In this document: one piece after another, positions 12,344 to 54,647 of the stretch
Layout: every line of letters begins with the position of its first letter
Numbering within the stretch: the first letter of the stretch is position 1
Virus record (IMG/VR): IMGVR_UViG_3300045988_117710
DNA length: 64,000 nucleotides
Direction: 5' to 3' (one strand)
From: a virus
The notes under the pieces: generated by a model
What the model was told of the DNA's origin: nothing
The model's database searches: none
Seen by the model: the letters and a program-made list of their open reading frames with translations, nothing else
Program-made: the position numbers and the translations under genes

Positions 12344-12345
12344 TT

Positions 12346-18768: not shown

Positions 18769-18769
18769 T

Positions 18770-18843: not shown

Positions 18844-18847
18844 TTAT

Positions 18848-19145: not shown

Positions 19146-19150
19146 TTATA

Positions 19151-19223: not shown

Positions 19224-19234
19224 TTGTGTAATTT

Positions 19235-19287
19235 AAATCAATAAGTTCTCTGAATTTATTGATTTTTTATTTTGGTTGTCGTATAAT
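19235..19287 (+). promoter_or_regulatory. terminator hairpin after tRNA-Trp followed by TTGATT, 17 nt, TATAAT promoter (TCGTATAAT)
   Basis: AAATCAATAA loop TTATTGATTT plus T-run (19235-19270); TTGATT 19259-19264; TCGTATAAT 19279-19287. Confidence 0.5.
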
Positions 19288-19303
19288 GTTTGTAAGGAAG
19301 GTG

Positions 19304-20158: not shown

Positions 20159-20159
20159 T

Positions 20160-20723
20160 ATGGCTGTTCCTAGAGATATTGATTTAACTCGTCATCTAGA
20201 TTTTAATAAGGATGAAGTAATAGCCAAGTCTGTTAAGCTTCCAAAGGAAGTTAAGGATACTTCTTATAAGAGATATAATGAGTATGAGAATACTTCCTTT
20301 AGAAGTACTACTAGTTTAACTACTGCACCTGGTTTAGATGATTGGGGTTTAGGTTCTTTTTCAACTAATTTCTCTAGTACAAGTTCTGATTCTTTTAAAC
20401 CTTTTTCTTTAGTTCCTACTATTAAGGTAGAGGAGAGGGTTTGTTGGAGAAAGCTTTATAAGGATCCTAATGTTTTTGAACCTAGGTATACTGCAGATGA
20501 GTGGGTTGAGGTATTTAAGAATAGAAACTTCCCAATGGGTAGTAGGGAAGATAGGATGAAAGTATTTGCAGAAGTTTTGAAGGATAAGTATGATCCTTGG
20601 AAGAATAGATGTGAGAGATGTGGGAAGAAGTTCAATCCTAATAATTGTTTTTCTCATTTCTATGGTTTATGTCAAGATTGTAATATTATTCTAGAAAATC
20701 AAGTTTATTCTGTGAATCTTTAA
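20160..20723 (+). CDS. hypothetical protein with C-terminal Cys cluster
   Basis: ORF track; CERCGKKFNPNNCFSHFYGLCQDCN. Confidence 0.4.
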   Translation: MAVPRDIDLTRHLDFNKDEVIAKSVKLPKEVKDTSYKRYNEYENTSFRSTTSLTTAPGLDDWGLGSFSTNFSSTSSDSFKPFSLVPTIKVEERVCWRKLYKDPNVFEPRYTADEWVEVFKNRNFPMGSREDRMKVFAEVLKDKYDPWKNRCERCGKKFNPNNCFSHFYGLCQDCNIILENQVYSVNL

Positions 20724-20734
20724 GAGGTGATATT

Positions 20735-21025
20735 GTGAAGGATTATCTAGATATAGTTAAGAGATGTAAGGAACAGAATATAGATATTGATGGTTGTCAT
20801 ATTTATATTTATCCTAATAATTTGGATGGGGAGTTTTGTCATAAGGGGACTTTATCACAGGATGGTGAATGGCTTTGTATTCCTTTGAAAAAGTTTGATG
20901 AGTCGTTCGAAATGGATTATTTCGAACCAGTGTGTTACCAAGTTAAAACGTCTTTTAAAACGTATTTAAAGGGTGATTCTCTTTGGTATCTTGTAGAGTG
21001 TTTTGTACTTTATGATAATAATTAA
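20735..21025 (+). CDS. hypothetical protein
   Basis: ORF track; GTG start with RBS AAGAGGTGA. Confidence 0.35.
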   Translation: MKDYLDIVKRCKEQNIDIDGCHIYIYPNNLDGEFCHKGTLSQDGEWLCIPLKKFDESFEMDYFEPVCYQVKTSFKTYLKGDSLWYLVECFVLYDNN

Positions 21026-21030
21026 TTGAG

Positions 21031-21312
21031 GTGATTATAGTGTTGAGTGATACAAATGTTAACTTTATATGTTTTGCAAGTAGGAAGTCTATAAGGAAAT
21101 GGGTAGTTTCTGAAGTTAGATATGATTATGAATGGGATGGATATTGTGTTCATAAGTTAGGTGAGAATGAGTATTGTGAATTTGGAACTCCTTTTGCTGC
21201 TTATAATCATGCAAAGAATATTTCTAATAAGTATAAGAAGAAATACTCTGATGCAGTTGTAATTGTTAAGGAAGTTGGAGTAACAGCGGAGGATCTTGTT
21301 TCGAATGGATAA
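21031..21312 (+). CDS. hypothetical protein
   Basis: ORF track. Confidence 0.35.
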   Translation: MIIVLSDTNVNFICFASRKSIRKWVVSEVRYDYEWDGYCVHKLGENEYCEFGTPFAAYNHAKNISNKYKKKYSDAVVIVKEVGVTAEDLVSNG

Positions 21313-21778
21313 GCCAATTATATTTCTAGATTTTGATGGTGTTGTTGAAACTATTTATTGGGAGAAAGATAAGGACGGTTCTTGGTCTTGGAATGTTCAT
21401 AAGTCTGGGAGAGAAGAACTGAATAATAAACAAGCGATTGGCTGGCTTAATGAGCTTTATAAGAAAGTTCCTTATGACATAGTGGTTTCTAGTACTTGGA
21501 GGATTGGAATGTCTGTTGAAGAGCTTCAAACTCTGATTACTAATTCTGGATTTAATAAAGAAATTAGGGTTTTAGATAAGACTCCTATTCTTTATCAACA
21601 GAGGGGTGTTGAGATTCAGAGATGGATAGATGATAATGATTTTAAAGGGAAGTTCATCATTATAGATGATGATTCTGATATGTGTCATTTACTTCCATTA
21701 CTTGTAAGATGTGATTGTCAGCTTGGTTTTACTATTTATGATTATAATAAAGCATTAAGATTGTTAGATGAATCTTAA
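21296..21778 (+). CDS. HAD-like phosphatase (putative nucleotidase)
   Basis: HAD motifs IIFLDFDGVVET (DxDGV), VVSSTWR, FIIIDDDSD. Confidence 0.5.
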   Translation: MFRMDKPIIFLDFDGVVETIYWEKDKDGSWSWNVHKSGREELNNKQAIGWLNELYKKVPYDIVVSSTWRIGMSVEELQTLITNSGFNKEIRVLDKTPILYQQRGVEIQRWIDDNDFKGKFIIIDDDSDMCHLLPLLVRCDCQLGFTIYDYNKALRLLDES

Positions 21779-21791
21779 GAAAGGATTGTTT

Positions 21792-22019
21792 ATGGATAAG
21801 GTTAATGTTAGAGAGTTGTTTATACTTGCAATGTTTCTTTTGACTACTGTTATTTCTATTGGTCTTTATAATCAGAATATTGGATTAAGAAAGACTATTG
21901 AAGAGAAGGATAAAGAGATTGAAGATTTAACTTTTGATAATTCTCGTTGTAATATGGCTTATGATGAGTTTTATGAATTATTTATGGATTGTGTTTCTTA
22001 TGAGAAGTGTACAGAATAG
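21792..22019 (+). CDS. small membrane protein
   Basis: ORF track (21768) trimmed to ATG 21792 with RBS AAGGA; hydrophobic segment LFILAMFLLTTVISIGLY. Confidence 0.4.
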   Translation: MDKVNVRELFILAMFLLTTVISIGLYNQNIGLRKTIEEKDKEIEDLTFDNSRCNMAYDEFYELFMDCVSYEKCTE

Positions 22020-22020
22020 T

Positions 22021-22029
22021 TCGTATAAT
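22021..22029 (+). promoter_or_regulatory. phage promoter-like motif TCGTATAAT
   Basis: Exact 9-mer 18 nt upstream of ORF 22047. Confidence 0.45.
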
Positions 22030-22046
22030 ATTTATGAGGTGATAAT

Positions 22047-22298
22047 ATGAATGTAAATATTCAATGTGATAAGTGTAAGAATGTATATCCTGGTGATGAT
22101 ATTCTAATGGTTAACAATTTTGGTACTGCAGAACTTGTTGGTGCTATTTGTACTAGTTGTTATAATTCTATTGGTAATTGTGAAGCAGAGTGTTGTGATT
22201 GTTGTGAATCTGATGTTTGTGATGGGCAATTGACTATTGATGATTTCATTGACGATAATGATATTGAGGTTCTAACAGATGTTGACTCTACCTATTAA
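22047..22298 (+). CDS. hypothetical Cys-rich protein
   Basis: ORF track; CDKCKN...CTSCYNSIGNCEAECCDCCESDVCDG; downstream of promoter motif 22021. Confidence 0.4.
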   Translation: MNVNIQCDKCKNVYPGDDILMVNNFGTAELVGAICTSCYNSIGNCEAECCDCCESDVCDGQLTIDDFIDDNDIEVLTDVDSTY

Positions 22299-22617
22299 GA
22301 AGAAATGGTTTGATATGATTCTTTCTGGAGAGAAGAAAGAAGAGTATCGTGAAATTAAACCTTATTATGATTCTAGATTTATAATATTTAAGTCCCAAAG
22401 TGCAAACAATATATTTCAAAGTGCAAATTTATTAACTGGTGAAGTTAATACTTATGAACATTGTCAAGATATTATTTTTAGGAATGGTTATTCTGGTTCT
22501 AGTCCTTGTATTAAGTGTAAGGTTAGTCTATCTCGAGGAGAAGGTAAACCTGAGTGGGGTGCTGAACCTGGTGTTGAGTATTATATCCTTAATATCTTAA
22601 GTGTTGAGAAGTTATAG
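22279..22617 (+). CDS. hypothetical protein, possible ASCH/PUA-like domain
   Basis: KKKWFDMILSGEKKEEYR resembles the ASCH N-terminal motif; weak. Confidence 0.3.
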   Translation: MLTLPIKKKWFDMILSGEKKEEYREIKPYYDSRFIIFKSQSANNIFQSANLLTGEVNTYEHCQDIIFRNGYSGSSPCIKCKVSLSRGEGKPEWGAEPGVEYYILNILSVEKL

Positions 22618-22626
22618 AGGTGTTTT

Positions 22627-22845
22627 ATGAAGTTAGATGAAAATACTTTAATTAGATATACTGTTGAAGATAAGAATGGTGAGATTGTTCAGACGACTTT
22701 TACTTTACAACAAGTTGAAGGTAGTGTTCCTAATTTCTATCAAGCTTTTAAAGATGCTTTAAGAGATTTAGAAGATTTTGATGTTGATAATTCTGAAATT
22801 ATTTCAAGAGAGATTGTGAGTGATTCTGATGAAGAAGATTTATAG
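22627..22845 (+). CDS. hypothetical protein
   Basis: ORF track. Confidence 0.35.
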   Translation: MKLDENTLIRYTVEDKNGEIVQTTFTLQQVEGSVPNFYQAFKDALRDLEDFDVDNSEIISREIVSDSDEEDL

Positions 22846-23281
22846 TAAGTATGACAATATAGGAGATTTAGTAGAAGCTCTTAAGGAAGTTCAAGTTGGT
22901 TCTAAATTCAAGTTCTGGCATGAGAAGAAGAGATATACTTGTATGGGTAGAAGTGAGAACTTTATTATCATTTCTAAACCATTTAATCTGAAAGAAGATT
23001 GTTGTATGTATTCTATTCTTGATCTTACTCAGATGAGATGCAATAGAGATAATCTAGTGTTTGGGATTTATGATTATTCTAATGAAGAAGATTGTAAGGA
23101 TGCATTAGAAGCCCTAGAAAGATCTCTAGTACCATGGGAAGAGAGATTTATTAAGTGTGAACCTGATGAAGATGGAAGAGTAAAACTGATTCCTAAATAT
23201 CCAGAAGCAGACTTTACTTTAGAGATTTCACAACGTGGTGGTGCAAATATTGTTGATGCAATTGAAGAAGTTTATATATAA
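22820..23281 (+). CDS. hypothetical protein
   Basis: ORF track. Confidence 0.4.
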   Translation: MILMKKIYSKYDNIGDLVEALKEVQVGSKFKFWHEKKRYTCMGRSENFIIISKPFNLKEDCCMYSILDLTQMRCNRDNLVFGIYDYSNEEDCKDALEALERSLVPWEERFIKCEPDEDGRVKLIPKYPEADFTLEISQRGGANIVDAIEEVYI

Positions 23282-23287
23282 AATTAG

Positions 23288-23316
23288 TTGACTTTTTATT
23301 TCCTTTGTGTTATATT
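23288..23316 (+). promoter_or_regulatory. sigma70-like promoter (TTGACT, 17 nt, TATATT)
   Basis: TTGACT at 23288-23293, 17-nt spacer, TATATT at 23311-23316. Confidence 0.45.
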
Positions 23317-23349
23317 AAGTTTAGTATATGAGGCATATGAAGTTCCTTG

Positions 23350-23445
23350 GTTAGGTTGTTAACCCGGTAGTCGTAGGTTCGAGTCCTACTCCATACTTCC
23401 GAAAGGTCGGTGGATAGCTCAGTGGATAGAGCACCGTTTACTTCT
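23350..23445 (+). other. two adjacent tRNA-like fragments (3'-type fragment, then 5'-type fragment)
   Basis: 23374-23398 has T-arm GTAGG-TTCGAGT-CCTAC plus acceptor-like TCCATAC but no D-arm upstream; 23407-23436 has acceptor-like CGGTGGA, TA, D-arm GCTC-AGTGGATA-GAGC, then no anticodon or T-arm; acceptor strands only 5/7 complementary. Confidence 0.3.
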
Positions 23446-23519
23446 CGCCTTAATATATTTATAGAACTGAAATATGGACTGTAAAGACTTTTCTTTATAT
23501 ATTATGTTGAGGAGTTTTT

Positions 23520-23972
23520 ATGGAACAGTTTAAAGTTTGTAGTAAGTGCAAAAGAGAATTATCATTAGATTGTTTTAGGTGGAAAAATAAATCTAAGGGT
23601 ATAAGACATTATCGATGCAGAGAGTGTCAAAAGGAATCTGATAAGAAGCTTTATTTGGAAAGTGAGTCAAGACGTCGTACTGTAAGGGGTATAGCAGATT
23701 CACAGAAGCAAAGAAATCTTCAGATTGTAGATGAAGCAAAGAAGTGTGGTTGTTGCAAGTGTGGTGAGATGAGACCATTTGTGTTAGATTTTCATCATGT
23801 TGATCCAACTACAAAGGATAGTGAGATAGCCCATTTGTTAAAGTCTGCTTCAGTTGAGCATTTATTAGATGAGTTATCCAAGTGTGTTGTCTTTTGTGCT
23901 AATTGTCATAGGGAATATCATTATCTTAATAAGACTTTTGGTATTACTATTGATGAGTATCTAAAGAAATAG
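23520..23972 (+). CDS. HNH endonuclease
   Basis: HNH motif region FVLDFHHVDPTTKDS...CVVFCANCHREYH plus N-terminal Zn-ribbon CSKCKRE...CRECQ. Confidence 0.7.
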   Translation: MEQFKVCSKCKRELSLDCFRWKNKSKGIRHYRCRECQKESDKKLYLESESRRRTVRGIADSQKQRNLQIVDEAKKCGCCKCGEMRPFVLDFHHVDPTTKDSEIAHLLKSASVEHLLDELSKCVVFCANCHREYHYLNKTFGITIDEYLKK

Positions 23973-23975
23973 TAT

Positions 23976-24051
23976 GGGCCGATAGCTCAGTTGGTAGAGC
24001 ACGACACTGAAAATGTCGGTGTCGGTGGTTCAATCCCACCTCGGCCCACCA
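23976..24051 (+). tRNA. tRNA-Phe (anticodon GAA)
   Basis: Manual cloverleaf; loop ACTGAAA; acceptor GGGCCGA/TCGGCCC; CCA encoded. Confidence 0.8.
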
Positions 24052-24056
24052 TATAT

Positions 24057-24132
24057 CGCGGAGTGGAGAAGTGGTTATCTCGTCTGGCTCATAACCAGAA
24101 GAGCGTGGGTTCAAATCCCACTTCCGCAACCA
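24057..24132 (+). tRNA. tRNA-Met (anticodon CAU), initiator-like C1-A72 mismatch
   Basis: Manual cloverleaf; loop CTCATAA; acceptor CGCGGAG/TTCCGCA leaves C1 opposite A72, as in bacterial tRNA-fMet; anticodon stem has only two G-C pairs. Confidence 0.65.
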
Positions 24133-24218
24133 TTTTGTTTGTGAAAGCAAACAATCCTGAAACGCCTAACTTAGATCGGAGATCAAGTATTTAGGTAAGT
24201 TGAGAAAGGAGGAAGATT

Positions 24219-24503
24219 ATGGCGAAACCTGTAAATGCGGGTAAACCATGGAGTGTTGAAGATTTAGTTATTCTTGCTAATACAGCACCAACTAAACACA
24301 ATATTTCTTTTCTAGCAAAGTCATTAGGTAGAACTGAGGATGCTGTTTATAGTCAGTATTATTTATTGTTCTGTGCACCTAGTTACTTGAAACAAGCTGA
24401 TGGAAGTATTCTAGAACAACACAAGAGAATTCTTCAAGCAAAGAAGATAGCTGGTTTACACGTTTCTATAACACCTAAAGCAGATTCTTATAAAGTTTCT
24501 TAA
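24219..24503 (+). CDS. Myb/SANT-like HTH DNA-binding protein
   Basis: KPWSVEDLVILANTAPTKHNISFLAKSLGRTEDAVYSQY resembles the Myb/SANT repeat; RBS AAAGGAGG. Confidence 0.4.
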   Translation: MAKPVNAGKPWSVEDLVILANTAPTKHNISFLAKSLGRTEDAVYSQYYLLFCAPSYLKQADGSILEQHKRILQAKKIAGLHVSITPKADSYKVS

Positions 24504-24547
24504 TTTGTTATAGATTATAGGAAAGTCATTAAGACTTTCTGATATGT

Positions 24548-24634
24548 GCCTAGTTGTGATAATTGGTAGTCGGGCGGTCTTGAAAACCGTTGGTCGGAAA
24601 CGGCTTGGGGGTTCGAGTCCCTCACTAGGCGCCA
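24548..24634 (+). tRNA. tRNA-Ser (anticodon UGA), class II
   Basis: Manual fold; loop CTTGAAA; long variable arm; acceptor GCCTAGT/ACTAGGC; CCA encoded. Confidence 0.7.
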
Positions 24635-24660
24635 TTTAATTAGTTCATAGAGGTGAAGAT

Positions 24661-25230
24661 ATGAATAAGACTATAAGTCATTTTAAGACAATTACTAAAC
24701 ATAAGTTTTATGTTATGAAGTTTTGTTTCAAGTGTCATTTATTTAAGAGAGGTTTATTACATGATCTTTCTAAATATAGTCCAATTGAGTTCTGTACTAG
24801 TGTGAAGTATTATACTGGTAATAGAAGTCCTATTGATAATGAGAAAGATGTTAAGGGTTATTCATTAGCTTGGCAACATCATAAAGGTCATAATCCTCAT
24901 CATTGGGAGTATTGGATTGACAATGTTGGTACAAGAACAAACAATGCAGGAAGAATTCCTTATAAGTATGTTGTAGAAATGATTTGTGATTGGCTTGCTG
25001 CTGGTATAGTTTATTCTAAAAAGAATCCTGATTATAATGAACCATATGATGTTCCTGTGAAACATTATAATGCCCATACTCATGAAAGAATATTTCATGA
25101 GGATACACAAGAGTTAATTGAGTTCTTTCTAGATAGAATTGCTAGAGATGGAATTAATGATTTTTGTAGAATTGCAAGAGAAAAGAAACTTTCTATAATT
25201 AAGAATTACCTAAATAAGGAGGTTTCATAA
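24661..25230 (+). CDS. putative HD-domain phosphohydrolase
   Basis: H...HD (KCHLFKRGLLHDLSKY) then His-rich WQHHKGHNPHHWEYW; weak family call. Confidence 0.35.
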   Translation: MNKTISHFKTITKHKFYVMKFCFKCHLFKRGLLHDLSKYSPIEFCTSVKYYTGNRSPIDNEKDVKGYSLAWQHHKGHNPHHWEYWIDNVGTRTNNAGRIPYKYVVEMICDWLAAGIVYSKKNPDYNEPYDVPVKHYNAHTHERIFHEDTQELIEFFLDRIARDGINDFCRIAREKKLSIIKNYLNKEVS

Positions 25231-25232
25231 TT

Positions 25233-25331
25233 ATGGGTTTCTGGTTAATTATATTTGTTTTATTGGATTGGATAAGTTTAGAGTCAGCTGTTGGTCTTTA
25301 TCTTATCTATTTAATTTTTGTAAAGGATTAA
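25233..25331 (+). CDS. small hydrophobic peptide (32 aa)
   Basis: Not in ORF track (short); RBS AAGGAGG 9 nt upstream of ATG 25233; MGFWLIIFVLLDWISLESAVGLYLIYLIFVKD. Confidence 0.35.
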   Translation: MGFWLIIFVLLDWISLESAVGLYLIYLIFVKD

Positions 25332-25347
25332 TATATTGGAGGTATTT

Positions 25348-25521
25348 ATGAGTAAGCACAGTGGATTAGGATATCCATCAAAGAACTTAGTTAAAGAGAT
25401 AAGATATTCTAGAAAAGCTGCTGTTGCTTTCGTAAATAATCATAGGATAAGATATTTTATTTATACTAGATTATCCAAGTATTATGAACACAAACATTAT
25501 AAAGAAATTATGTCTTCGTAG
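25348..25521 (+). CDS. hypothetical small basic protein
   Basis: ORF track (25336) trimmed to ATG 25348 with RBS GGAGG; 3' end overlaps tRNA-Lys by about 10 nt. Confidence 0.3.
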   Translation: MSKHSGLGYPSKNLVKEIRYSRKAAVAFVNNHRIRYFIYTRLSKYYEHKHYKEIMSS

Positions 25522-25587
25522 CTCAGTTGGTAGAGCAACTGACTCTTAATCAGTGGGTCCAGAGTTCGAGTCTCTGCGAGGACACCA
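25512..25587 (+). tRNA. tRNA-Lys (anticodon CUU)
   Basis: Manual cloverleaf; loop CTCTTAA; acceptor GTCTTCG/CGAGGAC (one G-U); CCA encoded. Confidence 0.7.
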
Positions 25588-25590
25588 TAT

Positions 25591-25682
25591 GTCCACTTAC
25601 TCAAGTTGGTGAAGAGGACAGATTGCTAATCTGTTAGATCAGTTTTACTGGTGCGAAGGTTCGAGTCCTTCAGTGGACGCCA
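25591..25682 (+). tRNA. tRNA-Ser (anticodon GCU), class II
   Basis: Manual fold; loop TTGCTAA; long variable arm; acceptor GTCCACT/AGTGGAC. Confidence 0.7.
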
Positions 25683-25700
25683 TTTTGTGTTTATGGCACT

Positions 25701-25776
25701 GCTTCTTTAGCTCAGTCGGTAGAGCGCACGGCTGTTAACCGTTAGGTCGTAGGTTCGAGTCCTACAAGAAGCGCCA
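25701..25776 (+). tRNA. tRNA-Asn (anticodon GUU)
   Basis: Manual cloverleaf; loop CTGTTAA; acceptor GCTTCTT/AAGAAGC. Confidence 0.7.
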
Positions 25777-25786
25777 TTAGTTTTTT

Positions 25787-25870
25787 GGGCAGTTAGCGAA
25801 GCGGTCAAACGCGGCAGACTGTAAATCTGTTCCTTCGGGTTCCGTGGTTCGAATCCACGACTGCCCACCA
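25787..25870 (+). tRNA. tRNA-Tyr (anticodon GUA), class II
   Basis: Manual fold; loop CTGTAAA; long variable arm TCCTTCGGGTTCCG; acceptor GGGCAGT/ACTGCCC. Confidence 0.7.
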
Positions 25871-25873
25871 TTT

Positions 25874-25950
25874 GTCCTTTTAGCTCAGCTGGATAGAGCA
25901 TCGCCCTTCTAAGGCGAGTGTCCTAGGTTCGAATCCTAGAGGGGACGCCA
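25874..25950 (+). tRNA. tRNA-Arg (anticodon UCU)
   Basis: Manual cloverleaf; loop CTTCTAA; acceptor GTCCTTT/AGGGGAC with two G-U pairs. Confidence 0.65.
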
Positions 25951-25956
25951 TAATAT

Positions 25957-26029
25957 CACACTGTATCCAAGTGGTTAAGGAGCCAGATATAGAACTGGTA
26001 ATTCAATGGTTCGAATCCATTCGGTGTGA
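25957..26029 (+). tRNA. atypical tRNA-like gene with noncanonical anticodon arm (identity undetermined; possible pseudogene)
   Basis: Good acceptor (CACACTG/CGGTGTG), D-arm and T-arm AATGG-TTCGAAT-CCATT, but anticodon arm CCAG-ATATAGAA-CTGG is one nt short of 5+7+5 (4-bp stem with 8-nt loop, or 6-nt loop with an A-A mismatch); no encoded CCA. Confidence 0.4.
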
Positions 26030-26076
26030 GTCACTTTCATCTATTTGAAGGCGCAATAGAATAGGTGAAACACTAT

Positions 26077-26151
26077 TGCCCGGTAGCCAAGTGGTAAGGC
26101 ACAAGACTTTGACTCTTGCATGCGCTAGTTCGAATCTAGCCCGGGCAGCCA
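26077..26151 (+). tRNA. tRNA-Gln (anticodon UUG)
   Basis: Manual cloverleaf; loop CTTTGAC; acceptor TGCCCGG/CCGGGCA; CCA encoded. Confidence 0.7.
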
Positions 26152-26182
26152 TTTAATATTTACCGAAAGAAGGTATTGCTAT

Positions 26183-26569
26183 ATGAATAATAGGAAGGTA
26201 ACTAAGTCTACAAAAGTCCATAGAAAGAATCTAATACAAAGTCTGAAGGATGAGGTTAGGATTCTTGATGAACATTATGAGTTTAAGAATGATAAGAAAA
26301 CTACTAAGTATATAATTCATTCTAATATTGGAACTTTTGAAGGTGTTTCTATTTGTCATGATGAAGACAAGTTTGTAGTTTGGAAAGCATTACAGATTTC
26401 AAAGAAGAGAGCACGTAGAGCTTATGATACAGCTGTTAAGGTTTATTTAGATGAACGATATGTTATTCCTATAACAAGATTTATGGATGGTTATATTTCT
26501 GAAGCTGTTGCACTTAAGTATAGTGTAGAGAAGCTTACAGGATACAATAAAGACAATATCGAGAACTAG
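26183..26569 (+). CDS. hypothetical protein
   Basis: ORF track. Confidence 0.4.
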   Translation: MNNRKVTKSTKVHRKNLIQSLKDEVRILDEHYEFKNDKKTTKYIIHSNIGTFEGVSICHDEDKFVVWKALQISKKRARRAYDTAVKVYLDERYVIPITRFMDGYISEAVALKYSVEKLTGYNKDNIEN

Positions 26570-26797
26570 CTATTCTCGTGAAGATACAAACAAGCTTTGA
26601 TGCGTTAGAAAGTTTGGAAGGTTTATCGGAGGGCGAATTGTACCTAGTGCAGTAAACAAGTGAGCCCACATATATGTCCTGATGTCTAGGTAGAGAAAGA
26701 GCGGTTCAATTCCGATAGGGACTTTAGAAAATATACTTATCGACGGATATTTTGTATATTAATATTAAAAGTGTAGGAAGACGTTCTTACATGATTT

Positions 26798-26873
26798 GGG
26801 GGATTAGCTCAGCTGGGAGAGCAACTGCCTTGCACGCAGTAGGTCATCGGTTCGAACCCGATATCCTCCACCA
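26798..26873 (+). tRNA. tRNA-Ala (anticodon UGC)
   Basis: Manual cloverleaf; loop CTTGCAC; acceptor GGGGATT/ATCCTCC with G3-U70 (Ala identity); CCA encoded. Confidence 0.8.
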
Positions 26874-26899
26874 TTTATTATTTAAGGGGTGATAGTATT

Positions 26900-27337
26900 A
26901 TGATTAAATATGTTTTTATTGATATGGATAATACTATTGCTGAGAATTCTACTTGTATGAATATTGAATTCTATAAAGGTTTATATCTTAATAAGCGTCC
27001 TATTAGAATTGTTATTGATGCTTTGTTAAATCTTTATGGTGATTGTTCTTTTATTATTCTTTCTAAAACCGATGGTGGTGAAGATGGTAAGAAAGAGAAG
27101 ATAGAATGGCTTTATAAATATTTTCCTTACACAGATAATATTATTCTAATTGATATTTATGAACGTAAGAGAGATTTTATTGAAGGTTTTCTTTTAGCAA
27201 ATCATGTGGATTCAAGTGAGTGTTTATTAGTAGATGATAAGAAATCGATCTTACAAGATTGTAGTGTTTTGGGTATTAGTGTTAAGTATCCACAACAATT
27301 AATCTGTGATTATGAGAATGCTGACTTGGCGCAATAG
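26900..27337 (+). CDS. HAD-like hydrolase (putative 5'(3')-deoxyribonucleotidase-like)
   Basis: Motif I FIDMDNTIAEN (DxDxT); LLVDDKKS. Confidence 0.45.
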   Translation: MIKYVFIDMDNTIAENSTCMNIEFYKGLYLNKRPIRIVIDALLNLYGDCSFIILSKTDGGEDGKKEKIEWLYKYFPYTDNIILIDIYERKRDFIEGFLLANHVDSSECLLVDDKKSILQDCSVLGISVKYPQQLICDYENADLAQ

Positions 27338-27386
27338 TTTTATATATTATTGGTAGAGTAGATTTTATTTTAAAGGAGCTTTACCA

Positions 27387-27794
27387 ATGAAGAAGAAAAT
27401 ACATTATTGTAGATATTGTAATAAGTTGTTAGAAGAGAGACACAAAGTTTATTGTAATAATAAATGTCAGTCAGATTATCAATATGAACAATATATCAAG
27501 AGATGGAAAGATGGTTTAGAGGATGGATTAAGATGTGAGTATTCTCTATCAAATCATATTCATAGATATATGAGAGAAAAGTATGGGAATAAGTGTAGTA
27601 GATGTGGTTGGTGCGAAGTTAATCCATTTACTGGAAAGGTTCCTTTAGAGATAGATCATATTGATGGTAATTACTTAAATAATAGTGAAGATAATTTGGA
27701 TTTGATTTGTCCTAATTGTCATAGTTTAACTTCTACCTATAGAGCTCTGAATAAGGGAAGAGGTAGGAAAGAGAGAAGGAAGTACGATTTGTAA
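27387..27794 (+). CDS. HNH endonuclease
   Basis: CSRCGWCE...EIDHIDGNYLNNSEDNLDLICPNCHS (HNH with Zn-binding Cys pairs). Confidence 0.7.
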   Translation: MKKKIHYCRYCNKLLEERHKVYCNNKCQSDYQYEQYIKRWKDGLEDGLRCEYSLSNHIHRYMREKYGNKCSRCGWCEVNPFTGKVPLEIDHIDGNYLNNSEDNLDLICPNCHSLTSTYRALNKGRGRKERRKYDL

Positions 27795-27804
27795 TTCTTT
27801 ATTT

Positions 27805-27878
27805 GCCCGGATAGTTAAAAGGTATAACAGATGACTTGTAATCATCTATTGGCCGTTCGATTCGACCTCTGGGCACCA
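27805..27878 (+). tRNA. tRNA-Thr (anticodon UGU)
   Basis: Manual cloverleaf; loop CTTGTAA; acceptor GCCCGGA/TCTGGGC (one G-U); one T-stem mismatch. Confidence 0.6.
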
Positions 27879-27886
27879 TTTGATTT

Positions 27887-27971
27887 GGGAGATTGTCGGA
27901 ACTGGTAGACGAGCGACGCTTAGAACGTCGTGTTGAAAAGCGTATGGGTTCGAGTCCCTTATCTCCCACCA
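27887..27971 (+). tRNA. tRNA-Leu (anticodon UAG), class II
   Basis: Manual fold; loop CTTAGAA; long variable arm; acceptor GGGAGAT/ATCTCCC; CCA encoded. Confidence 0.7.
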
Positions 27972-28163
27972 TTGATTGTGGTTTTTCAAATTTTGGTATT
28001 TACAATGGCTTGTATCGCGGGAAAGTCAATGCCCTAGGGAAGTAAGATGTGGCTGCCAAAAGTTCGTTATACAAGTAAGGTTTGAAATACATCTTAAGTA
28101 TTTTTGCTCTTTGGCTCGGTAAGAGGTTCGAAGGAAGTACTTAATATTAAATCCGAGCAACAT

Positions 28164-28240
28164 GGCCAGTTGGTGAAGCGGTTTAACACGTCGCCCTTTC
28201 ACGGCGATATACATGGGTTCGAATCCCATACTGGTCACCA
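28164..28240 (+). tRNA. tRNA-Glu (anticodon UUC)
   Basis: Manual cloverleaf; loop CTTTCAC; acceptor GGCCAGT/ACTGGTC; CCA encoded. Confidence 0.7.
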
Positions 28241-28774
28241 TAATTAGATTATTAAGCATATCATAGATTTTTGAATAGGTGGTTCTATTCTCATAGGTGG
28301 ATTTATTCCACAACTTATTATGTTGAATCTCAAGATTGTCGTAATTGGGATTCAATACCTAATCTTTTATATGAGAGTGATGACTCATATAAATGTTTAA
28401 TATAGAAATATAGATAACCGCTAATCGTGTCGTAAGCGTTTCCTAGAACGAATAACTAGGTCATTTCAGTTCTTACACAACTGAACTTATCTGTAGGGAG
28501 TTTATATTTTTGTACCTACCTGATACTGGGAGAGAGCCAGAAGTGAAGTGATTGGGCTGCCTGACCGAGCTGAAGGCCCAGATCGTTGTCTATATGGATA
28601 TTGTATGGTAGTTCTATTTATGATGCAGATTATTAGAGAGTGTAAGTTATTTCTAATAGTTATAATAGCAACGACAAGCTGTGAAGTCATACAAGACATA
28701 ATAATGATTATTATTATTATGTTCTTCTGGAATCTATTTAGATTCAGGTATCTTTTAAGATACCACTCCTTTCT

Positions 28775-28863
28775 GGGAGTGTGGCGGAATAGGTAGACGC
28801 AACGGACTTAAAATCCGTTGACCTTCAACGGTCGTGAGAGTTCAAGTCTCTCCACTCCCACCA
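28775..28863 (+). tRNA. tRNA-Leu (anticodon UAA), class II
   Basis: Manual fold; loop CTTAAAA; long variable arm; acceptor GGGAGTG/CACTCCC; CCA encoded. Confidence 0.75.
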
Positions 28864-28882
28864 TTTATTTAGAGGTGCAATT

Positions 28883-29044
28883 ATGGAAGAGAAAGATAAG
28901 AAAGAATTAGTTAGATTATTAGAAGTTTATAAAGAACATCTTTGGGATGATTGTAATTCTGAAAGTAATAATCTTCCTTATGAGTTAGCTCTATTAGAGA
29001 TAGAGGATATTATTAATTATTTAATTAGGGAGATATCTTCATAG
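28883..29044 (+). CDS. hypothetical small protein (53 aa)
   Basis: Not in ORF track (short); RBS AGAGGTG 6 nt upstream of ATG 28883; MEEKDKKELVRLLEVYKEHLWDD... Confidence 0.3.
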   Translation: MEEKDKKELVRLLEVYKEHLWDDCNSESNNLPYELALLEIEDIINYLIREISS

Positions 29045-29049
29045 TATAT

Positions 29050-29126
29050 TGCGATGTAGCTCAAATGGTTAGAGCAGTCGGTTCATACCCGATTGGTTAT
29101 AGGTTCGAGTCCTATCTTCGCGACCA
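29050..29126 (+). tRNA. tRNA with anticodon CAU (elongator Met or lysidine-modified Ile2)
   Basis: Manual cloverleaf; loop TTCATAC; acceptor TGCGATG/CTTCGCG imperfect (one mismatch plus U1-G72). Confidence 0.55.
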
Positions 29127-29202
29127 TTGAATTCTTATGTTATACATAAATTATTAATTCATAACTTACCCAGAGAACTACTTTGTAGCATATCAAAAAC
29201 CG

Positions 29203-29243
29203 GTTAGTATCTTCGGGTGACGGTAAGGGTTATCGATACTAAC
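29203..29243 (+). other. 9-bp perfect inverted repeat with 23-nt loop
   Basis: GTTAGTATC ... GATACTAAC immediately upstream of tRNA-Pro. Confidence 0.4.
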
Positions 29244-29252
29244 AATTTATTT

Positions 29253-29329
29253 CGGGATGTGGCTCAACTTGGTAGAGCACTTGGTTTGGGACCAAGTGGT
29301 TGCAGGTTCAAATCCTGTCATCCCGACCA
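29253..29329 (+). tRNA. tRNA-Pro (anticodon UGG)
   Basis: Manual cloverleaf; loop TTTGGGA; acceptor CGGGATG/CATCCCG; CCA encoded. Confidence 0.75.
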
Positions 29330-29339
29330 TTTTGTAATT

Positions 29340-29545
29340 ATAAGTAGTGGCGGAATACGTAGACGTGGTCAAGAGGTGAACATAGTGGCAGCTCGATTGT
29401 CAGATAACCTTAAACACTTTTCTTAGGCAAACCGTGAATCGAGGAGAGGGAAAGCATAATCTAGACACATAAGGGAAACCTGTGGTACGAAGACCTAAGA
29501 GAAAATATGTTCATGTGAGGTGGAAATCCTCACCTACTTTATTAT
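29340..29545 (+). ncRNA. candidate small RNA beginning with a tRNA-Leu-like 5' fragment and ending at an intrinsic terminator
   Basis: GTGGCGGAATACGTAGACG is homologous to the D-arm region of tRNA-Leu at 28775 (GTGGCGGAATAGGTAGACG) but no anticodon or T-arm follows; about 200 nt without a long ORF; ends at hairpin GTGAGG-TGGAAAT-CCTCAC plus U-tract. Confidence 0.3.
29515..29545 (+). terminator. intrinsic terminator hairpin
   Basis: GTGAGG loop TGGAAAT CCTCAC followed by CTACTTTATT. Confidence 0.5.
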
Positions 29546-29547
29546 AA

Positions 29548-29624
29548 GGACGCTTAGCTCAGTTGGTTAGAGCTCTTGCCTTACAAGCAAGAGGTCATAG
29601 GTTCGAGTCCTATAGCGTCCACCA
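29548..29624 (+). tRNA. tRNA-Val (anticodon UAC)
   Basis: Manual cloverleaf; loop CTTACAA; acceptor GGACGCT/AGCGTCC; CCA encoded. Confidence 0.8.
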
Positions 29625-29628
29625 TTAT

Positions 29629-29692
29629 GTTGGTTAGCCGGTTCGCTAAGCTTTAAAGCATGCTGTTAGTGGTTCAATTCCACTAGCCAACA
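29629..29692 (+). other. truncated tRNA-like element (64 nt; acceptor and T-arm intact, no canonical D or anticodon arm)
   Basis: Acceptor GTTGGTT/AGCCAAC and T-arm AGTGG-TTCAATT-CCACT are clear; the internal 32 nt (palindromic GCTTTAAAGC) cannot form standard D and anticodon arms. Confidence 0.3.
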
Positions 29693-29697
29693 CTTAT

Positions 29698-29774
29698 ACA
29701 GGTATAACTCAGTTGGTTAGAGTACTCGTCTGATACGCGAGATGTCGGTGGTTCGAGTCCACCTACCTGTACCA
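29698..29774 (+). tRNA. tRNA-Ile (anticodon GAU)
   Basis: Manual cloverleaf; loop CTGATAC; acceptor ACAGGTA/TACCTGT; CCA encoded. Confidence 0.75.
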
Positions 29775-50921: not shown

Positions 50922-51293
50922 GTGATATATGTGAGTAGTTTCGATACAGATAAGATGTATACAGAGTTGAATAGACTTTTAGATACCTATTCATTTTCTG
51001 AATTGATGTGGTTGTTTAGAAATATTACTTATGACCAAATTAAATACTTTTCTGAAGATAGTAAGGGAGTTATTTATGATGGTTCTTATTCTAGGGAAGT
51101 AATAGAACAGGCAACTGATTTTCAACGTAAGATTTCGACTTATGCAGATCTTATGAATCAATCTATTTCAAATCATAGAGAGTTTGATAGGGATTATTTA
51201 AAGCAATATGAGTATGCTGGACCTTATCTTAATATTATCGAGAGTTTGAAAGAGAGAATCAATTTTTTGGAAGGTGTTGAGGAAGATGACTAG
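50922..51293 (+). CDS. hypothetical protein
   Basis: ORF track; GTG start downstream of promoter motif 50912. Confidence 0.4.
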   Translation: MIYVSSFDTDKMYTELNRLLDTYSFSELMWLFRNITYDQIKYFSEDSKGVIYDGSYSREVIEQATDFQRKISTYADLMNQSISNHREFDRDYLKQYEYAGPYLNIIESLKERINFLEGVEEDD

Positions 51294-52488
51294 TGTGGCA
51301 AAGAGTTATCAGTTTACTTTAACTGATAAGTATGTTTCAAGTTGGGGTTATTTAGAAGGTATTCGTGAGTTATTACAGAATGCCTATGATTATGGTAATT
51401 ATGATATTTCTTTTGGTTCTGATTCTATTGTTATTAAGAATTATAATGATAAGATTCAAATTAAAACTTTGTTGATGGGTTATGGGACAAAGACCAATGA
51501 TAAGAATTCTATTGGTGGATTTGGTGAAGGTTTTGTTTTAGCTCTATTGGTTCTATTAAGACAAGGATTTCAAGTTCATATAGAGAATGCTGATGAAGTA
51601 TGGATTCCTTATTTCCAAGAGAGTGAAGAGTTTAATAATGAGAGATTATTCCATATCAATGTTTTAGAGAGTGAAAGTCCAACTGATGATTTGTCTATTA
51701 TTGTAAGTGGTTTTAGTCCTGAACAATTGAATTCTATTCAAGATGAGTTCTTAGGTTTACAAGGAGATTATTCTTCTATTAAGACTTTATATGGTGAAAT
51801 TCTTACTGATCCTAATCAGAAAGGTAAGATGTATGTTGAAGGTTTACCTATTACTACTGATAGAGATTTTGAGTATGGATATAACTTTAAAGCAGAGTAT
51901 GTTATCCTAGATAGAGATAGGAAAGATATTAATCATAAGGAACTTAAGAAGATTACTTCTATGGCAATTGTTCATATGGAGGAAGATAATTTTGATTTTG
52001 TAGATAGTATTGTTGATTCTGGTAAGGAAGATATTTATGCTTTTAATCATAAGGAGATAGAGCTTCCTAAAACTTTTGTTGATAAGTATTCAGACCATTT
52101 AAAGAAGAAGTTTAGTGTTGCTGATACATCAGTTGTTGTTAATAAAACTGATGAGAAGGTTATTAAGGAACTTGAGGATATGGGTGAAGAAGTTGTTACT
52201 GTTGATAGGAAGATTTATGCAGATATTATTAATGAGACTTCTGAATATTCTTATGATAAATATCAACAAGCATCTAAAACTGTTAGTAGTAGAAGTAAGG
52301 TAGATGATGCTTGGATTTATTTTAGAAATAGTACTTATAGTGATTTGTTAGATTGGTTAAAGAAATATGAGTCATTGCTTTCTGAAGAAGCAATTGAAGA
52401 GTATAAGAGTATTATGGAATATAATGAACCTTATTTATTTGAGTTAATTCGTGATGAGGTTTTAGGTGATTCTGATGGGGCGAAATAG
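51274..52488 (+). CDS. GHKL-family ATPase domain protein (Bergerat fold)
   Basis: N-box IRELLQNAYDYG (ELxxNAxD); G-boxes LMGYGTK and IGGFGEGF. Confidence 0.55.
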   Translation: MLRKMTSVAKSYQFTLTDKYVSSWGYLEGIRELLQNAYDYGNYDISFGSDSIVIKNYNDKIQIKTLLMGYGTKTNDKNSIGGFGEGFVLALLVLLRQGFQVHIENADEVWIPYFQESEEFNNERLFHINVLESESPTDDLSIIVSGFSPEQLNSIQDEFLGLQGDYSSIKTLYGEILTDPNQKGKMYVEGLPITTDRDFEYGYNFKAEYVILDRDRKDINHKELKKITSMAIVHMEEDNFDFVDSIVDSGKEDIYAFNHKEIELPKTFVDKYSDHLKKKFSVADTSVVVNKTDEKVIKELEDMGEEVVTVDRKIYADIINETSEYSYDKYQQASKTVSSRSKVDDAWIYFRNSTYSDLLDWLKKYESLLSEEAIEEYKSIMEYNEPYLFELIRDEVLGDSDGAK

Positions 52489-53155
52489 GTTCCCAATTGG
52501 GCTTAAATTTCATCATTTAACGGTTATTGAGTATTTGGGTTCACAGGGTGATAAGAATCGTCACACTCGATATAAATGCCTTTGTGATTGTGGTAAAGAG
52601 GTTATCATTCTTTCTCAACATATTGGTAAGCAGAAGAGTTGTGGGTGTGTTCCTCGAAACAATCATAGATACAAATCGTATAATGTTTCAAAGGAGGATA
52701 GTATGAAATTAGTTCGTGAAGCTGCTTTTGAAACAAATTCAAGTAGTACTCATAGTATTACTATGTGTTCTGGATCTGTTTTCGATGATTGGAAGGATGG
52801 TAAGTTAGTTTTTCTTGAAGATGAGGACAAGTTCTTTGTTAAGGGTAGTCGTGAGTTAAGAGATTGGTATGCTAGGTGTGTTTTACGTTATAAGTGTACT
52901 TATGATTGGGATACTAAATTGTATTCAGATGGATCTGCAACTTATACTGAAGATGAGCTTTTCTGCCAAGAGAGATTAGATTCTGTTTCTGAAGAAGATA
53001 TTTCAGAGTATAGAGAAGATGATTGGTATGCATGTCCACTTTCTTACAGTGAGTGGGTTGACTATCGTGGTGAAGGTTATGAGTTATATGAAGAACGTAA
53101 TACCTTTGATGGTGCAGATGTTGTAGCATTTGGTTACTATGGAAATGATTATTAA
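52466..53155 (+). CDS. FETNSSSTH-motif family protein (paralog B), possibly with N-terminal Zn-ribbon extension
   Basis: Internal ATG 52703 with RBS AAGGAGG gives MKLVREAAFETNSSSTH, matching the N-terminus of ORF 1871; the 79 in-frame residues upstream contain a C-x-C-x-C-G...C-G-C Zn-ribbon like those in ORF 44079. Confidence 0.5.
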   Translation: MILMGRNRFPIGLKFHHLTVIEYLGSQGDKNRHTRYKCLCDCGKEVIILSQHIGKQKSCGCVPRNNHRYKSYNVSKEDSMKLVREAAFETNSSSTHSITMCSGSVFDDWKDGKLVFLEDEDKFFVKGSRELRDWYARCVLRYKCTYDWDTKLYSDGSATYTEDELFCQERLDSVSEEDISEYREDDWYACPLSYSEWVDYRGEGYELYEERNTFDGADVVAFGYYGNDY

Positions 53156-53168
53156 TTTGTTTAATTAA

Positions 53169-53211
53169 AGTCAACAATATTGTTGACTTTTTCTTTTGTT
53201 TATCGTATAAT
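53169..53211 (+). promoter_or_regulatory. palindromic terminator overlapping a full consensus promoter (TTGACT, 17 nt, TATAAT with TCG)
   Basis: GTCAACAAT/ATTGTTGAC palindrome 53169-53188; TTGACT 53183-53188; 17-nt spacer; TCGTATAAT 53203-53211; drives the PARP-like gene. Confidence 0.55.
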
Positions 53212-53236
53212 AGAGACAATGAAAGAGGTAATGTTT

Positions 53237-54496
53237 ATGAAATTTGCAAAGTTAATTATGATTACTGAAGACAATCACAATAAAGAGTATATAATGACTC
53301 AGATTGATTCTTCAACATTTAAAGCTGAATGGGGTAGGGTTGGTTCTAGTTATCAATCAACTACTTATTCTATGTATGAGTGGGATAGTAAGTACAAATC
53401 TAAAGTTAAGAAAGGTTATAAGGATATATCAAATCTAGTTGAGAAGGTTACTGTAGATGGTGATGTTAAGACTTTACCTTATGACTATATTACTAATAAG
53501 TCTGTCAAGGATATTCTTAATAGATTGTATCAATATACTGATTCTTACTTAAAGGAAAACTACTTAGTTAATACTGTAGATGTTTCCAAAGCACAAATTG
53601 ATGAAGCTTATAAGATTATTGATGAGCTTGAAAGATTAGCTTATTCAAGACATTTAGATGTTCGTGAAGTTAATAGAAATTTAATTAAGTTATTTGAAAC
53701 AATTCCAAGACGTATGTCTAGAGTTAAAGATTATTTATGTGATGATTCTATTACTAAAGATAAGGTTGATGAAAAGATTCGTGCTGAGTTAGATATGCTT
53801 AAGACTATGTCAGATGCTGTTGAGTTAAGACTTAAGAAACAAGCTGCAAGTAAGAAGACTACTAAGGTTGAGAAGTTATCTGAATCTGAACAAAAGGATA
53901 AATTACTTGCTGATCTTGGATTAGTTGTAGAGGATGTAACTGATGAGGATATTAAGTTTATTAAGAAACAATTAGGTGAAAGTTCACACTTATTTAAGAA
54001 AGCTTGGAAGATTACTAATCCTGCTACTGAAAAGAGATTTAATGATTTAGTTGCTACTGATGATTTCAAAGGTAAGGAAGTTAAATATTATTGGCATGGT
54101 TCTAGAAATCAAAACTGGTATAATATTATTCAAACAGGATTAACTGCTAATCCTAAGGGTGTTAAGATTACTGGTAAGATGTTTGGTTATGGTATCTATT
54201 TTGCACCTAAAGCAAAGAAGAGTGTTAACTATACTTCTCTTGAAGGTTCTTATTGGGCAAGTGGTAATGATAAGAGTGGGTTCATGGCTTTATTCGAAGT
54301 TGCTATGGGTAATGTGTTAGATGTTTATGATCATCATTACTGGTGTTCAAGAACTAACAAAGAAGAGATGTGGAAACATAACAAGTGTCATACTTTATAT
54401 GCTCACGAAGGTAGAGGTTTCTTATACAATGATGAAGTTATTGCATATGATGATGCACAAGTTAATATTAAATATATAGTGGAGTTGAGTAGATAA
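53237..54496 (+). CDS. PARP-like ADP-ribosyltransferase with N-terminal WGR domain
   Basis: WGR motif FKAEWGRVGS; catalytic signature YYWHGSRNQNWYNIIQTGL (H-G-S), GKMFGYGIYFAPKAKKSVNY, and LYNDEVIAYDDAQVNIKYIV aligning with PARP1 [20 protein letters not shown] (catalytic Glu present); ATG 53237 after RBS AAGAGGT (track ORF 53180). Confidence 0.75.
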   Translation: MKFAKLIMITEDNHNKEYIMTQIDSSTFKAEWGRVGSSYQSTTYSMYEWDSKYKSKVKKGYKDISNLVEKVTVDGDVKTLPYDYITNKSVKDILNRLYQYTDSYLKENYLVNTVDVSKAQIDEAYKIIDELERLAYSRHLDVREVNRNLIKLFETIPRRMSRVKDYLCDDSITKDKVDEKIRAELDMLKTMSDAVELRLKKQAASKKTTKVEKLSESEQKDKLLADLGLVVEDVTDEDIKFIKKQLGESSHLFKKAWKITNPATEKRFNDLVATDDFKGKEVKYYWHGSRNQNWYNIIQTGLTANPKGVKITGKMFGYGIYFAPKAKKSVNYTSLEGSYWASGNDKSGFMALFEVAMGNVLDVYDHHYWCSRTNKEEMWKHNKCHTLYAHEGRGFLYNDEVIAYDDAQVNIKYIVELSR

Positions 54497-54544
54497 TGAA
54501 GAGAGATAAAGCTCTTTAAGTTTGATTAATTTATATATTATTTT

Positions 54545-54630
54545 AGGTGGTTTTAATTCTTTTTCCCACCTGACTTTCTTTTTCTTATTTTTTCCATTGG
54601 GTGGGGTTATCCCACTCTTTTTCGTATAAT
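54545..54630 (+). promoter_or_regulatory. two terminator hairpins followed by TCGTATAAT promoter motif
   Basis: AGGTGG...CCACCT (54545-54571) and GTGGG loop GTTAT CCCAC plus TCTTTTT (54601-54621); TCGTATAAT 54622-54630. Confidence 0.5.
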
Positions 54631-54647
54631 ATAGTAGGAGTGATTTT

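Follow-up and report, generated by a model that had tools for sequence, protein, structure and literature searches.

The gene and its product

The stretch of viral DNA analysed here (IMG/VR record IMGVR_UViG_3300045988_117710; 64,000 nucleotides, called the window in the following) carries on its plus strand a gene for a PARP-type ADP-ribosyltransferase. The gene occupies positions 53237-54496, stop codon included, and encodes 419 aa between an ATG at 53237 and a TAA at 54494-54496. Direct reading of the sequence places a ribosome-binding site, GAAAGAGG, at 53221-53228 (+ strand), 8 nt 5' of the ATG. The methionine at 53237 is the common start in the metagenome gene calls and in all homologues. 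We rejected the longest formal open reading frame (ORF), which would encode 438 aa from a TTG at 53180, because the promoter described below falls within it and because the homologues all begin at the ATG.

As judged from profile alignments and a predicted structure, the product is a PARP1-3-like enzyme of the compact type that combines a WGR domain, a helical domain (HD) and an ADP-ribosyltransferase (ART) domain. The WGR domain spans aa 1-65 (53237-53431, + strand) and was assigned by alignment to a PARP2 profile, by the model and by the Pfam matches of homologues. It is followed by the HD, which resembles PARP_reg (aa ~85-228; 53489-53920, + strand; phmmer and profile alignments, model), and by the ART or PARP catalytic domain (aa ~229-419; 53921-54493, + strand). 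The latter is recognized by Pfam PF00644 with E = 1.3e-21 and 77.5 bits, against a cutoff of 26.7. PHROG 23333, labelled 'polymerase', matches the protein from end to end (E = 1e-48); no NCBIfam model matches it.

In a phmmer search of PDB sequences, PARP1 chains were aligned across both the helical and the ART domain (E = 1e-15). A family profile of 42 homologues (39-86% identical) aligns from position 15 onwards and in one stretch with the WGR, HD and catalytic (CAT) domains of human PARP2 (7aeo_A, E = 5e-26). Pfam WGR matches are present on homologues that are 41-44% identical to the query. The AlphaFold model, which was built on the family alignment, has a predicted local distance difference test score (pLDDT) of 83.5 and a predicted TM score (pTM) of 0.76. 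In it, aa 1-65 form a WGR module of four beta-strands and a helix, after which comes a disordered linker, and the HD consists of six helices (88-108, 118-135, 142-155, 163-166, 174-204 and 216-227). The top PDB matches of the model are WGR-CAT chains of PARP1 and PARP2 on DNA breaks (E ~1e-20, TMq 0.60-0.68), and Foldseek also pairs it with PARP1 catalytic domains (E ~1e-17). Sequence, family profile and predicted fold thus agree in grouping the protein with the WGR-HD-CAT region of PARP1 and PARP2.

Active site and selection

A preliminary description of the locus had named several peptide motifs, all of which are present. FKAEWGRVGS, quoted as the WGR motif, lies at aa 28-37, where profile and fold agree with a WGR domain. 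The PARP catalytic signature with its H-G-S is found in YYWHGSRNQNWYNIIQTGL (aa 284-302), GYGIYFAPKAKKSVNY (aa 317-332) and LYNDEVIAYDDAQVNIKYIV (aa 396-415), within the ART domain. The WGR residues N15, K16, Y18, G33, R34 and G36 are invariant in the 42 homologues; the motif itself reads W32-G33-R34 in the query and Y-G-R in most relatives. Equally invariant are the catalytic residues H287-G288-S289, Y321, K328-S329, Y332 and E400. Of these, H287, Y321, K328/S329, Y332 and E400 correspond to H862, Y896, K903/S904, Y907 and E988 of PARP1, and the H-Y-E triad (H287/Y321/E400 on H862, Y896 and E988) is intact. The last block had been called almost identical to PARP1. In the ungapped profile alignment, this holds for E400, which aligns with E988, but not for the position of Tyr986, where the query has an Asn (N398).

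The gene is under strong purifying selection. It differs from that of strain L001 by 24 synonymous and 2 non-synonymous substitutions and from that of strain L008 by 19 and 0, respectively. The ratio of non-synonymous to synonymous substitution rates (dN/dS) is ~0.02 between strains and 0.11-0.16 against relatives of 68-77% identity, and on account of these low values we take the gene to be functional. Since the catalytic residues do not vary in the 42 homologues and dN/dS stays within 0.02-0.16, the phage enzyme is predicted from its sequence to be probably active, as had been proposed.

Transcription signals

A terminator-like hairpin with a 10-bp stem (AAAGTCAACAA/TTGTTGACTTT) and a subsequent T-run (53167-53190, + strand) ends the upstream transcription unit. 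It overlaps the -35 hexamer of a sigma-70/sigma-A-type promoter (53183-53211, + strand), which is composed of TTGACT at 53183-53188, a T-rich spacer of 17 nt and TATAAT at 53206-53211; the latter hexamer is part of an extended -10 element, TCGTATAAT (53203-53211, + strand). The preliminary description had credited the gene with a full consensus promoter of its own. The promoter is real, but it matches 11 of the 12 consensus positions and belongs to a general class. TCGTATAAT occurs 15 times in the window, on the plus strand only, where 0.43 occurrences would be expected (sites include 1844, 9696, 16179, 40297, 50902, 52676, 53203, 54622 and 61078), and the copies we examined are intergenic, 15-40 nt 5' of a start codon. 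TTGAC stands at the -35 position in only 3 of the 15 sites; TTGAC-N18-TATAAT as a whole is found three times in the window (0.19 expected). Because TCGTATAAT recurs in this way, we regard the promoter of the PARP gene as the general type of this phage rather than as gene-specific, and TCGTATAAT probably serves as its principal -10 promoter element. It usually comes after a T-rich stretch and often after a terminator hairpin. On the 3' side of the PARP gene, a terminator-like hairpin (GGGTGGGG/CCCACTC plus T-run; 54599-54617, + strand) is directly followed by the next TCGTATAAT promoter (54622-54630, + strand). The PARP gene forms a transcription unit of its own, read from a promoter of the host-sigma type.

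A large family in phages and bacteria

The gene belongs to a PARP family that is already known in bacteria and phages and does not represent a new kind of enzyme. An exhaustive HMMER scan of 1.84 billion cluster representatives (clusters at 50% identity) returned 2,596 matches at E <= 1e-3, 497 of them at E <= 1e-30; among the best 150 matches, nearly all are full-length (~390-450 aa). At least 249 viral contigs in IMG/VR, many of them 80-400 kb long, encode relatives, and so do at least 150 species representatives in GTDB, including Saprospiraceae, Cytophagales, Clostridia, Ruminococcus and Lachnospiraceae. A part of the GTDB contigs probably represents binned phage genomes. Annotated homologues are also found in the deposited phages Cellulophaga phi4:1, Klebsiella FBKp34 and Xanthomonas XacN1.

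The novelty implied by the preliminary description was overestimated, since phage PARPs are annotated in GenBank and homologues had been reported in 2005 from Aeh1 (PMC1266365) and in 2014 from Cellulophaga phi4:1 (PMC4245714). A survey in 2022 lists PARP among the most frequent viral ART families (PMC9503650), and in 2024 PARP was mentioned in gut jumbo phages (PMC11662467). The remark in the preliminary description that its author was not aware of characterised phage examples agrees with our literature search, in which we found no paper characterising a phage PARP. The bacterial PARPs have been described as compact WGR-(reg)-cat proteins with a YGR variant of the motif and a helical domain that is missed by Pfam (PMC5966428). 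In vitro activity has been shown for two compact bacterial enzymes (PMC5966428, PMC8120803): the Herpetosiphon PARP requires DNA and makes long poly(ADP-ribose) chains, and the C. difficile PARP has in vitro activity as well (PMC4245714, PMC8120803, PMC5966428).

Partner genes in related loci

The survey of phage homologues and their neighbours that had been suggested revealed many homologues. In the majority of the related phage loci, PARP comes directly after a TARG1-like macrodomain, an eraser of ADP-ribosylation, and a DNA ligase and replication genes are often close by. We clustered the neighbours, up to six genes per side, from 170 loci that represent 62 PARP groups at 70% identity. The top recurrent partner in phages is a protein of ~145 aa encoded immediately upstream of PARP in 71 of the 170 loci. 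The protein is recognizable as a macrodomain of the TARG1/OARD1 type (E = 5e-25 to human TARG1, PDB 4j5r) and retains the HKPT and GLDRL motifs; in L006/L007, the corresponding gene upstream of PARP encodes 139 aa. With hidden Markov models (HMMs), a TARG1-like macrodomain was detected no more than 8 kb from PARP in 66 of 80 IMG/VR loci, and 2.4 kb upstream of PARP in Klebsiella phage FBKp34 (E = 1.8e-14). The FBKp34 gene concerned is gene 105 (L175 1046-1561), annotated as 'putative phosphatase'; judging by this match, its product is probably not a phosphatase but an ADP-ribose hydrolase.

In the largest phage group, the genes follow one another in the order DnaB, DnaG, PD-(D/E)XK nuclease, Pol III alpha, ERCC4 nuclease, NAD+ (nicotinamide adenine dinucleotide)-dependent ligase with BRCT, macrodomain and PARP. 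The NAD+-dependent ligase with BRCT lies two genes upstream of PARP in 15 loci, and Cellulophaga phage phi4:1 has an ATP-dependent DNA ligase two genes downstream. The small genes that flank PARP in phi4:1 and FBKp34 gave no Pfam matches. ARH-type hydrolases are encoded near PARP in a few loci. In Bacteroidota (Cytophagales and Saprospiraceae; among loci L012-L091), a conserved protein of 98 aa is encoded 3' of PARP in 28 loci from 20 PARP groups, and this protein may represent a partner peculiar to the family's cellular branch. It has no Pfam match (e.g. L077 7270-7566); a 314-aa relative (L033 7257-8201) carries an additional WGR domain (Pfam, 6.7e-6). The pairing of PARP with a TARG1-like macrodomain and the linkage to ligases are the most interesting lead of this work, and they concern the wider family, not the present locus.

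The phage and the surroundings of the gene

The gene is carried by a ~179-kb T4-like myovirus of human gut metagenomes. An identical PARP gene is present on contig HMPC12-1_SAMN00034694 scaffold_33 (ENA ERZ28576703; 179,133 bp) of a metagenome that, going by its sample labels, appears to belong to the Human Microbiome Project, and near-identical genomes occur in other samples with labels suggesting human-gut cohorts (Zeevi, Hadza). A DNA-level search of deposited phages gave no match, and the phage is known from metagenomes only. A capsid protein of the Gp23 type and a tail tube of the gp19 type mark it as T4-like; the guanine-cytosine content is 32.5%. Window positions 18383-29774 hold, entirely on the plus strand, a transfer-messenger RNA gene and after it 23 tRNA genes, and one of the tRNAs (25956-26030) was called with the four-base anticodon atag. 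The phage codes for an anaerobic ribonucleotide reductase, SpoVS and the ribosomal proteins L9 and S21, and because of these genes its host is probably an anaerobic Firmicute. Several unusual proteins of cellular type are encoded at 2679-4525, 6187-6630, 7495-8349, ~13055-13252 and 13565-15796 of the window, and the set comprises a ClpA-like AAA ATPase adjoining a proteasome/HslV-like subunit, L9, S21, a Thg1-like tRNA-His guanylyltransferase and NrdD. Genes for S-adenosylmethionine synthetase, TelA and SpoVS are located at or just beyond the window edges.

The PARP gene is surrounded by structural genes, and the gene for the Gp23-type capsid protein lies ~7 kb upstream of it. A tail-fibre-like protein of 1378 aa is encoded upstream of it and tail-like proteins of 286 and 871 aa downstream. 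Pfam yielded nothing informative on the immediate neighbours (products of 123, 404, 229, 93, 226, 286 and 871 aa), and PADLOC models matched neither PARP nor its five neighbours. The upstream 404-aa protein (51274-52488) has a sacsin-like GHKL ATP-binding N-terminus, with matches to NCBIfam NF047352 (3.5e-5, below cutoff), weakly to Pfam MPN635_N, and to PHROG 6077 (function unassigned); a homologue of its gene lies ~9 kb from PARP in the unrelated phages L006 and L007. The ORF at 52466-53155, also upstream of PARP, has a composite look, with an HNH-endonuclease-like N-terminal part (PHROG 374) and a C-terminal part of 150 aa (52703-53155) that has its own TCGTATAAT promoter at 52676. Three paralogues of this C-terminal part flank PARP in the 77%-identical L092 (L092 5863-6771 and 9743-10225).

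Immediately 3' of the PARP stop codon (window 54497-54647) lies an indel hot spot that is polymorphic between ~95%-identical strains. There is no insert in the window and in L009, whereas L008 has a 123-aa ORF (11260-11631) and L001 an insert of 1.68 kb (11267-12950) with ORFs of 327, 127 and 77 aa and a second copy of 90 bp from the 3' end of PARP. Neither the three inserted ORFs of L001 nor the one of L008 have Pfam matches. The pattern suggests a mobile cassette. In relatives at 77% and 68% identity, PARP is found elsewhere, in regions of small accessory genes.

Possible roles of the phage PARP

The role that we favour, with some reserve and by analogy to known PARPs, is ADP-ribosylation activated by nicks or breaks during phage DNA metabolism. 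By homology with PARP2/3 and with the DNA-dependent Herpetosiphon PARP, the WGR domain would bind a DNA nick or end. Binding would unfold or displace the HD and open the NAD+ site, and the opened enzyme would then ADP-ribosylate itself and nearby DNA-bound proteins, possibly also the DNA end. PARP1-3 operate by such a DNA-gated relief of HD autoinhibition, and a need for DNA is likewise described for the Herpetosiphon enzyme (PMC4245714, PMC8120803). The gene neighbourhoods of related phages suggest that ADP-ribose may mark nicks and breaks that arise from phage replication, recombination or the breakdown of host DNA, and that the mark could coordinate end processing and ligation.

Several observations weigh against this proposal. 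The query's own Pfam scores stay below the cutoffs both for PARP_reg (14.3 bits; cutoff 26.8) and for WGR (13.6 bits; cutoff 22). The ungapped profile alignment puts N398, an Asn that is invariant throughout the family, opposite Tyr986 of PARP1; the alignment of the single sequence instead introduces a gap and pairs Y397 with Tyr986. Changes of Tyr986 in PARP1 shorten or re-branch the polymer (PMC7544232), and the invariant Asn therefore makes it uncertain whether the phage enzyme carries out poly- or mono-/oligo-ADP-ribosylation. The gene lies outside any replication module, between tail-fibre-like and structural genes and next to an HNH-like gene and the indel hot spot. Given its different position in the relatives of 77% and 68% identity, it has the behaviour of a mobile accessory gene, and the context of distant relatives may not transfer to this phage. 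Finally, we found no macrodomain, ARH, PARG, NAD+ salvage gene or ligase in the window and its ~18-kb flanks, together ~82 kb of the ~179-kb genome, using precomputed Pfam matches and HMMs derived from the TARG1-like and ARH neighbours of relatives. None of the relatives' partner genes was present in this region either. Of the bacterial-type pairing of writer and eraser, the inspected ~82 kb hold the compact WGR-(reg)-cat writer but no eraser.

It is also possible, although we consider it unlikely, that the enzyme has no part in DNA repair and serves host takeover. Made early, it would ADP-ribosylate host proteins or, hyperactivated by the breaks made in host DNA, consume NAD+ and thereby shut down host metabolism or starve NAD+-dependent defences or competing phages of substrate. 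The host-sigma type of the -35/-10 promoter would suit such an effector, as would the small early or accessory genes that surround PARP in relatives, with anti-restriction-like (faintly ArdA) and Endonuclease VII genes nearby. Viral ARTs are commonly seen as effectors in conflicts (PMC9503650), and since no eraser turned up in the ~82 kb inspected, the modification might run in one direction only. However, WGR domain and HD are both kept under purifying selection, which favours a regulated, DNA-gated activity over a constitutive toxin; most related phages combine PARP with a TARG1-like eraser, ligase and replication genes, and no PADLOC defence model was matched. A further candidate, which we rate as quite improbable and which again rests on analogy, is that the enzyme writes on nucleic-acid ends. 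The terminal phosphates at DNA breaks would be ADP-ribosylated, as by PARP2 and PARP3 in vitro, and this cap would either keep host exonucleases away from phage DNA ends or nicks or obstruct the host's DNA repair; the TARG1-like macrodomain of related phages would take it off again before ligation. The architecture is identical to the PARP2/3 core, a DNA ligase is nearby in relatives, and their partner is a macrodomain of the TARG1 type, not PARG. TARG1 reverses phosphate-linked ADP-ribosylation of nucleic acids. Reversible ADP-ribosylation of DNA and RNA by PARPs is the subject of two reviews (PMC8385414, PMC8883491). Still, this idea is pure analogy, DNA-end modification by PARP1-3 has been demonstrated mainly in vitro, the sequence contains nothing that separates protein from DNA substrates, and the macrodomain partner was not found locally in this phage.

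The gene lies between those for large tail-fibre-like proteins, with the capsid gene ~7 kb upstream, and this position could point to an effector that is made late, packaged into the virion and injected like T4 Alt, and viral ARTs are indeed often encoded near morphogenesis genes and packaged (PMC9503650). This seems very improbable, since the gene forms a terminator-bounded unit with a -35/-10 promoter, has no MuF or portal fusion, lies outside the structural region in the relatives of 68-77% identity and belongs to the H-Y-E clade rather than to the R-S-E clade of Alt and Mod. Its variable position between related phages and the adjoining indels might also be expected of a horizontally acquired passenger gene that has lost its function and is decaying. 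With an intact frame, conserved catalytic and WGR residues and a dN/dS of 0.02-0.16, this is hardly credible, and pseudogene status was rejected on residue conservation and dN/dS.

Significance

PARP signalling is usually seen as a eukaryotic DNA-damage system. To our knowledge, only two bacterial PARPs have been tested in vitro, and we know of no physiological role for the bacterial enzymes. The present locus adds an intact WGR-HD-CAT PARP, maintained by selection, to the gene content of abundant T4-like phages in the human gut, and the survey reveals a very large phage-borne PARP family that usually comes with a TARG1-like eraser and often with DNA ligase and replication genes. It is an attractive, if doubtful, idea that phage PARP, TARG1-like macrodomain and ligase, in some cases BRCT-bearing, make up a minimal viral module for strand-break signalling, of which the eraser-less clade described here would be a one-way variant. 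If so, the WGR-gated PARP would mark nicks and ends, on proteins or on DNA termini, ligase and end-processing enzymes would be recruited, and the macrodomain would erase the mark; in the one-way variant, DNA ends would be capped or flagged during takeover. Such a module would be a prokaryotic-virus counterpart, and possibly an evolutionary source, of the eukaryotic PARP-XRCC1/ligase logic. The cultivable phages FBKp34 and phi4:1 offer concrete systems for DNA-gated ADP-ribosylation in a prokaryotic setting.

Comparison with known systems

The phage protein shares with the bacterial PARPs of Herpetosiphon aurantiacus and Clostridioides difficile CD160 the domain order without zinc fingers or BRCT, a size of ~400-450 aa and the H-Y-E triad; the comparison with these two assayed enzymes is by description. 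As described for bacteria, the (Y/W)GR motif is mostly YGR in the family, and the helical domain is often missed by Pfam and becomes visible in models (PMC5966428). Unlike them, the query is the product of a T4-like gut phage of lytic type. The closest relatives from cellular genomes share only ~34-43% identity with it, and some of the metagenome-assembled contigs that encode them may be binned phage. The bacterial PARPs are discussed together with a PARG eraser, whereas phage relatives carry a TARG1-like macrodomain instead and the query phage has neither in the inspected regions.

With human PARP2, PARP3 and the PARP1 core, the likeness lies in the continuous WGR-HD-CAT profile alignment and in the best fold matches, PARP1 and PARP2 on DNA breaks. 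The WGR motifs NNNKYY and (W/Y)GRVG and the catalytic motifs HGS...GIYFA...KS..Y...E are common to both sides. Identity is ~20%, however, and the query lacks the N-terminal tail, zinc fingers and BRCT, has a shorter WGR-HD linker and an Asn at the Tyr986 position. We know of no HPF1-type partner in prokaryotes.

The annotated phage PARPs (phi4:1 gp031, vB_KpM_FBKp34 gp111, and those of Xanthomonas phage XacN1, uncultured phage LR756500 and UniProt A0A8D9PE85) belong to the same PHROG 23333 family and are 27-37% identical to the query in tblastn over up to 100% of the length. A0A8D9PE85 reaches a TM of 0.79 to the query model, and the FBKp34 protein is annotated in GenBank with WGR, regulatory and catalytic domains. 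They differ in context: the query gene is in a structural region, whereas the phi4:1 gene is near a ligase, and FBKp34 has a macrodomain upstream of PARP that has no counterpart in the inspected regions of the query phage.

Alt, ModA and ModB of T4 are likewise NAD+-dependent ARTs encoded by a T4-like myovirus and active during infection. They are, however, arginine-specific mono-ARTs of the R-S-E clade that have no WGR domain or HD (PMC8120803, PMC9503650). We therefore rejected membership of the query in the Alt/Mod group on the basis of its H-Y-E motifs and PARP fold.

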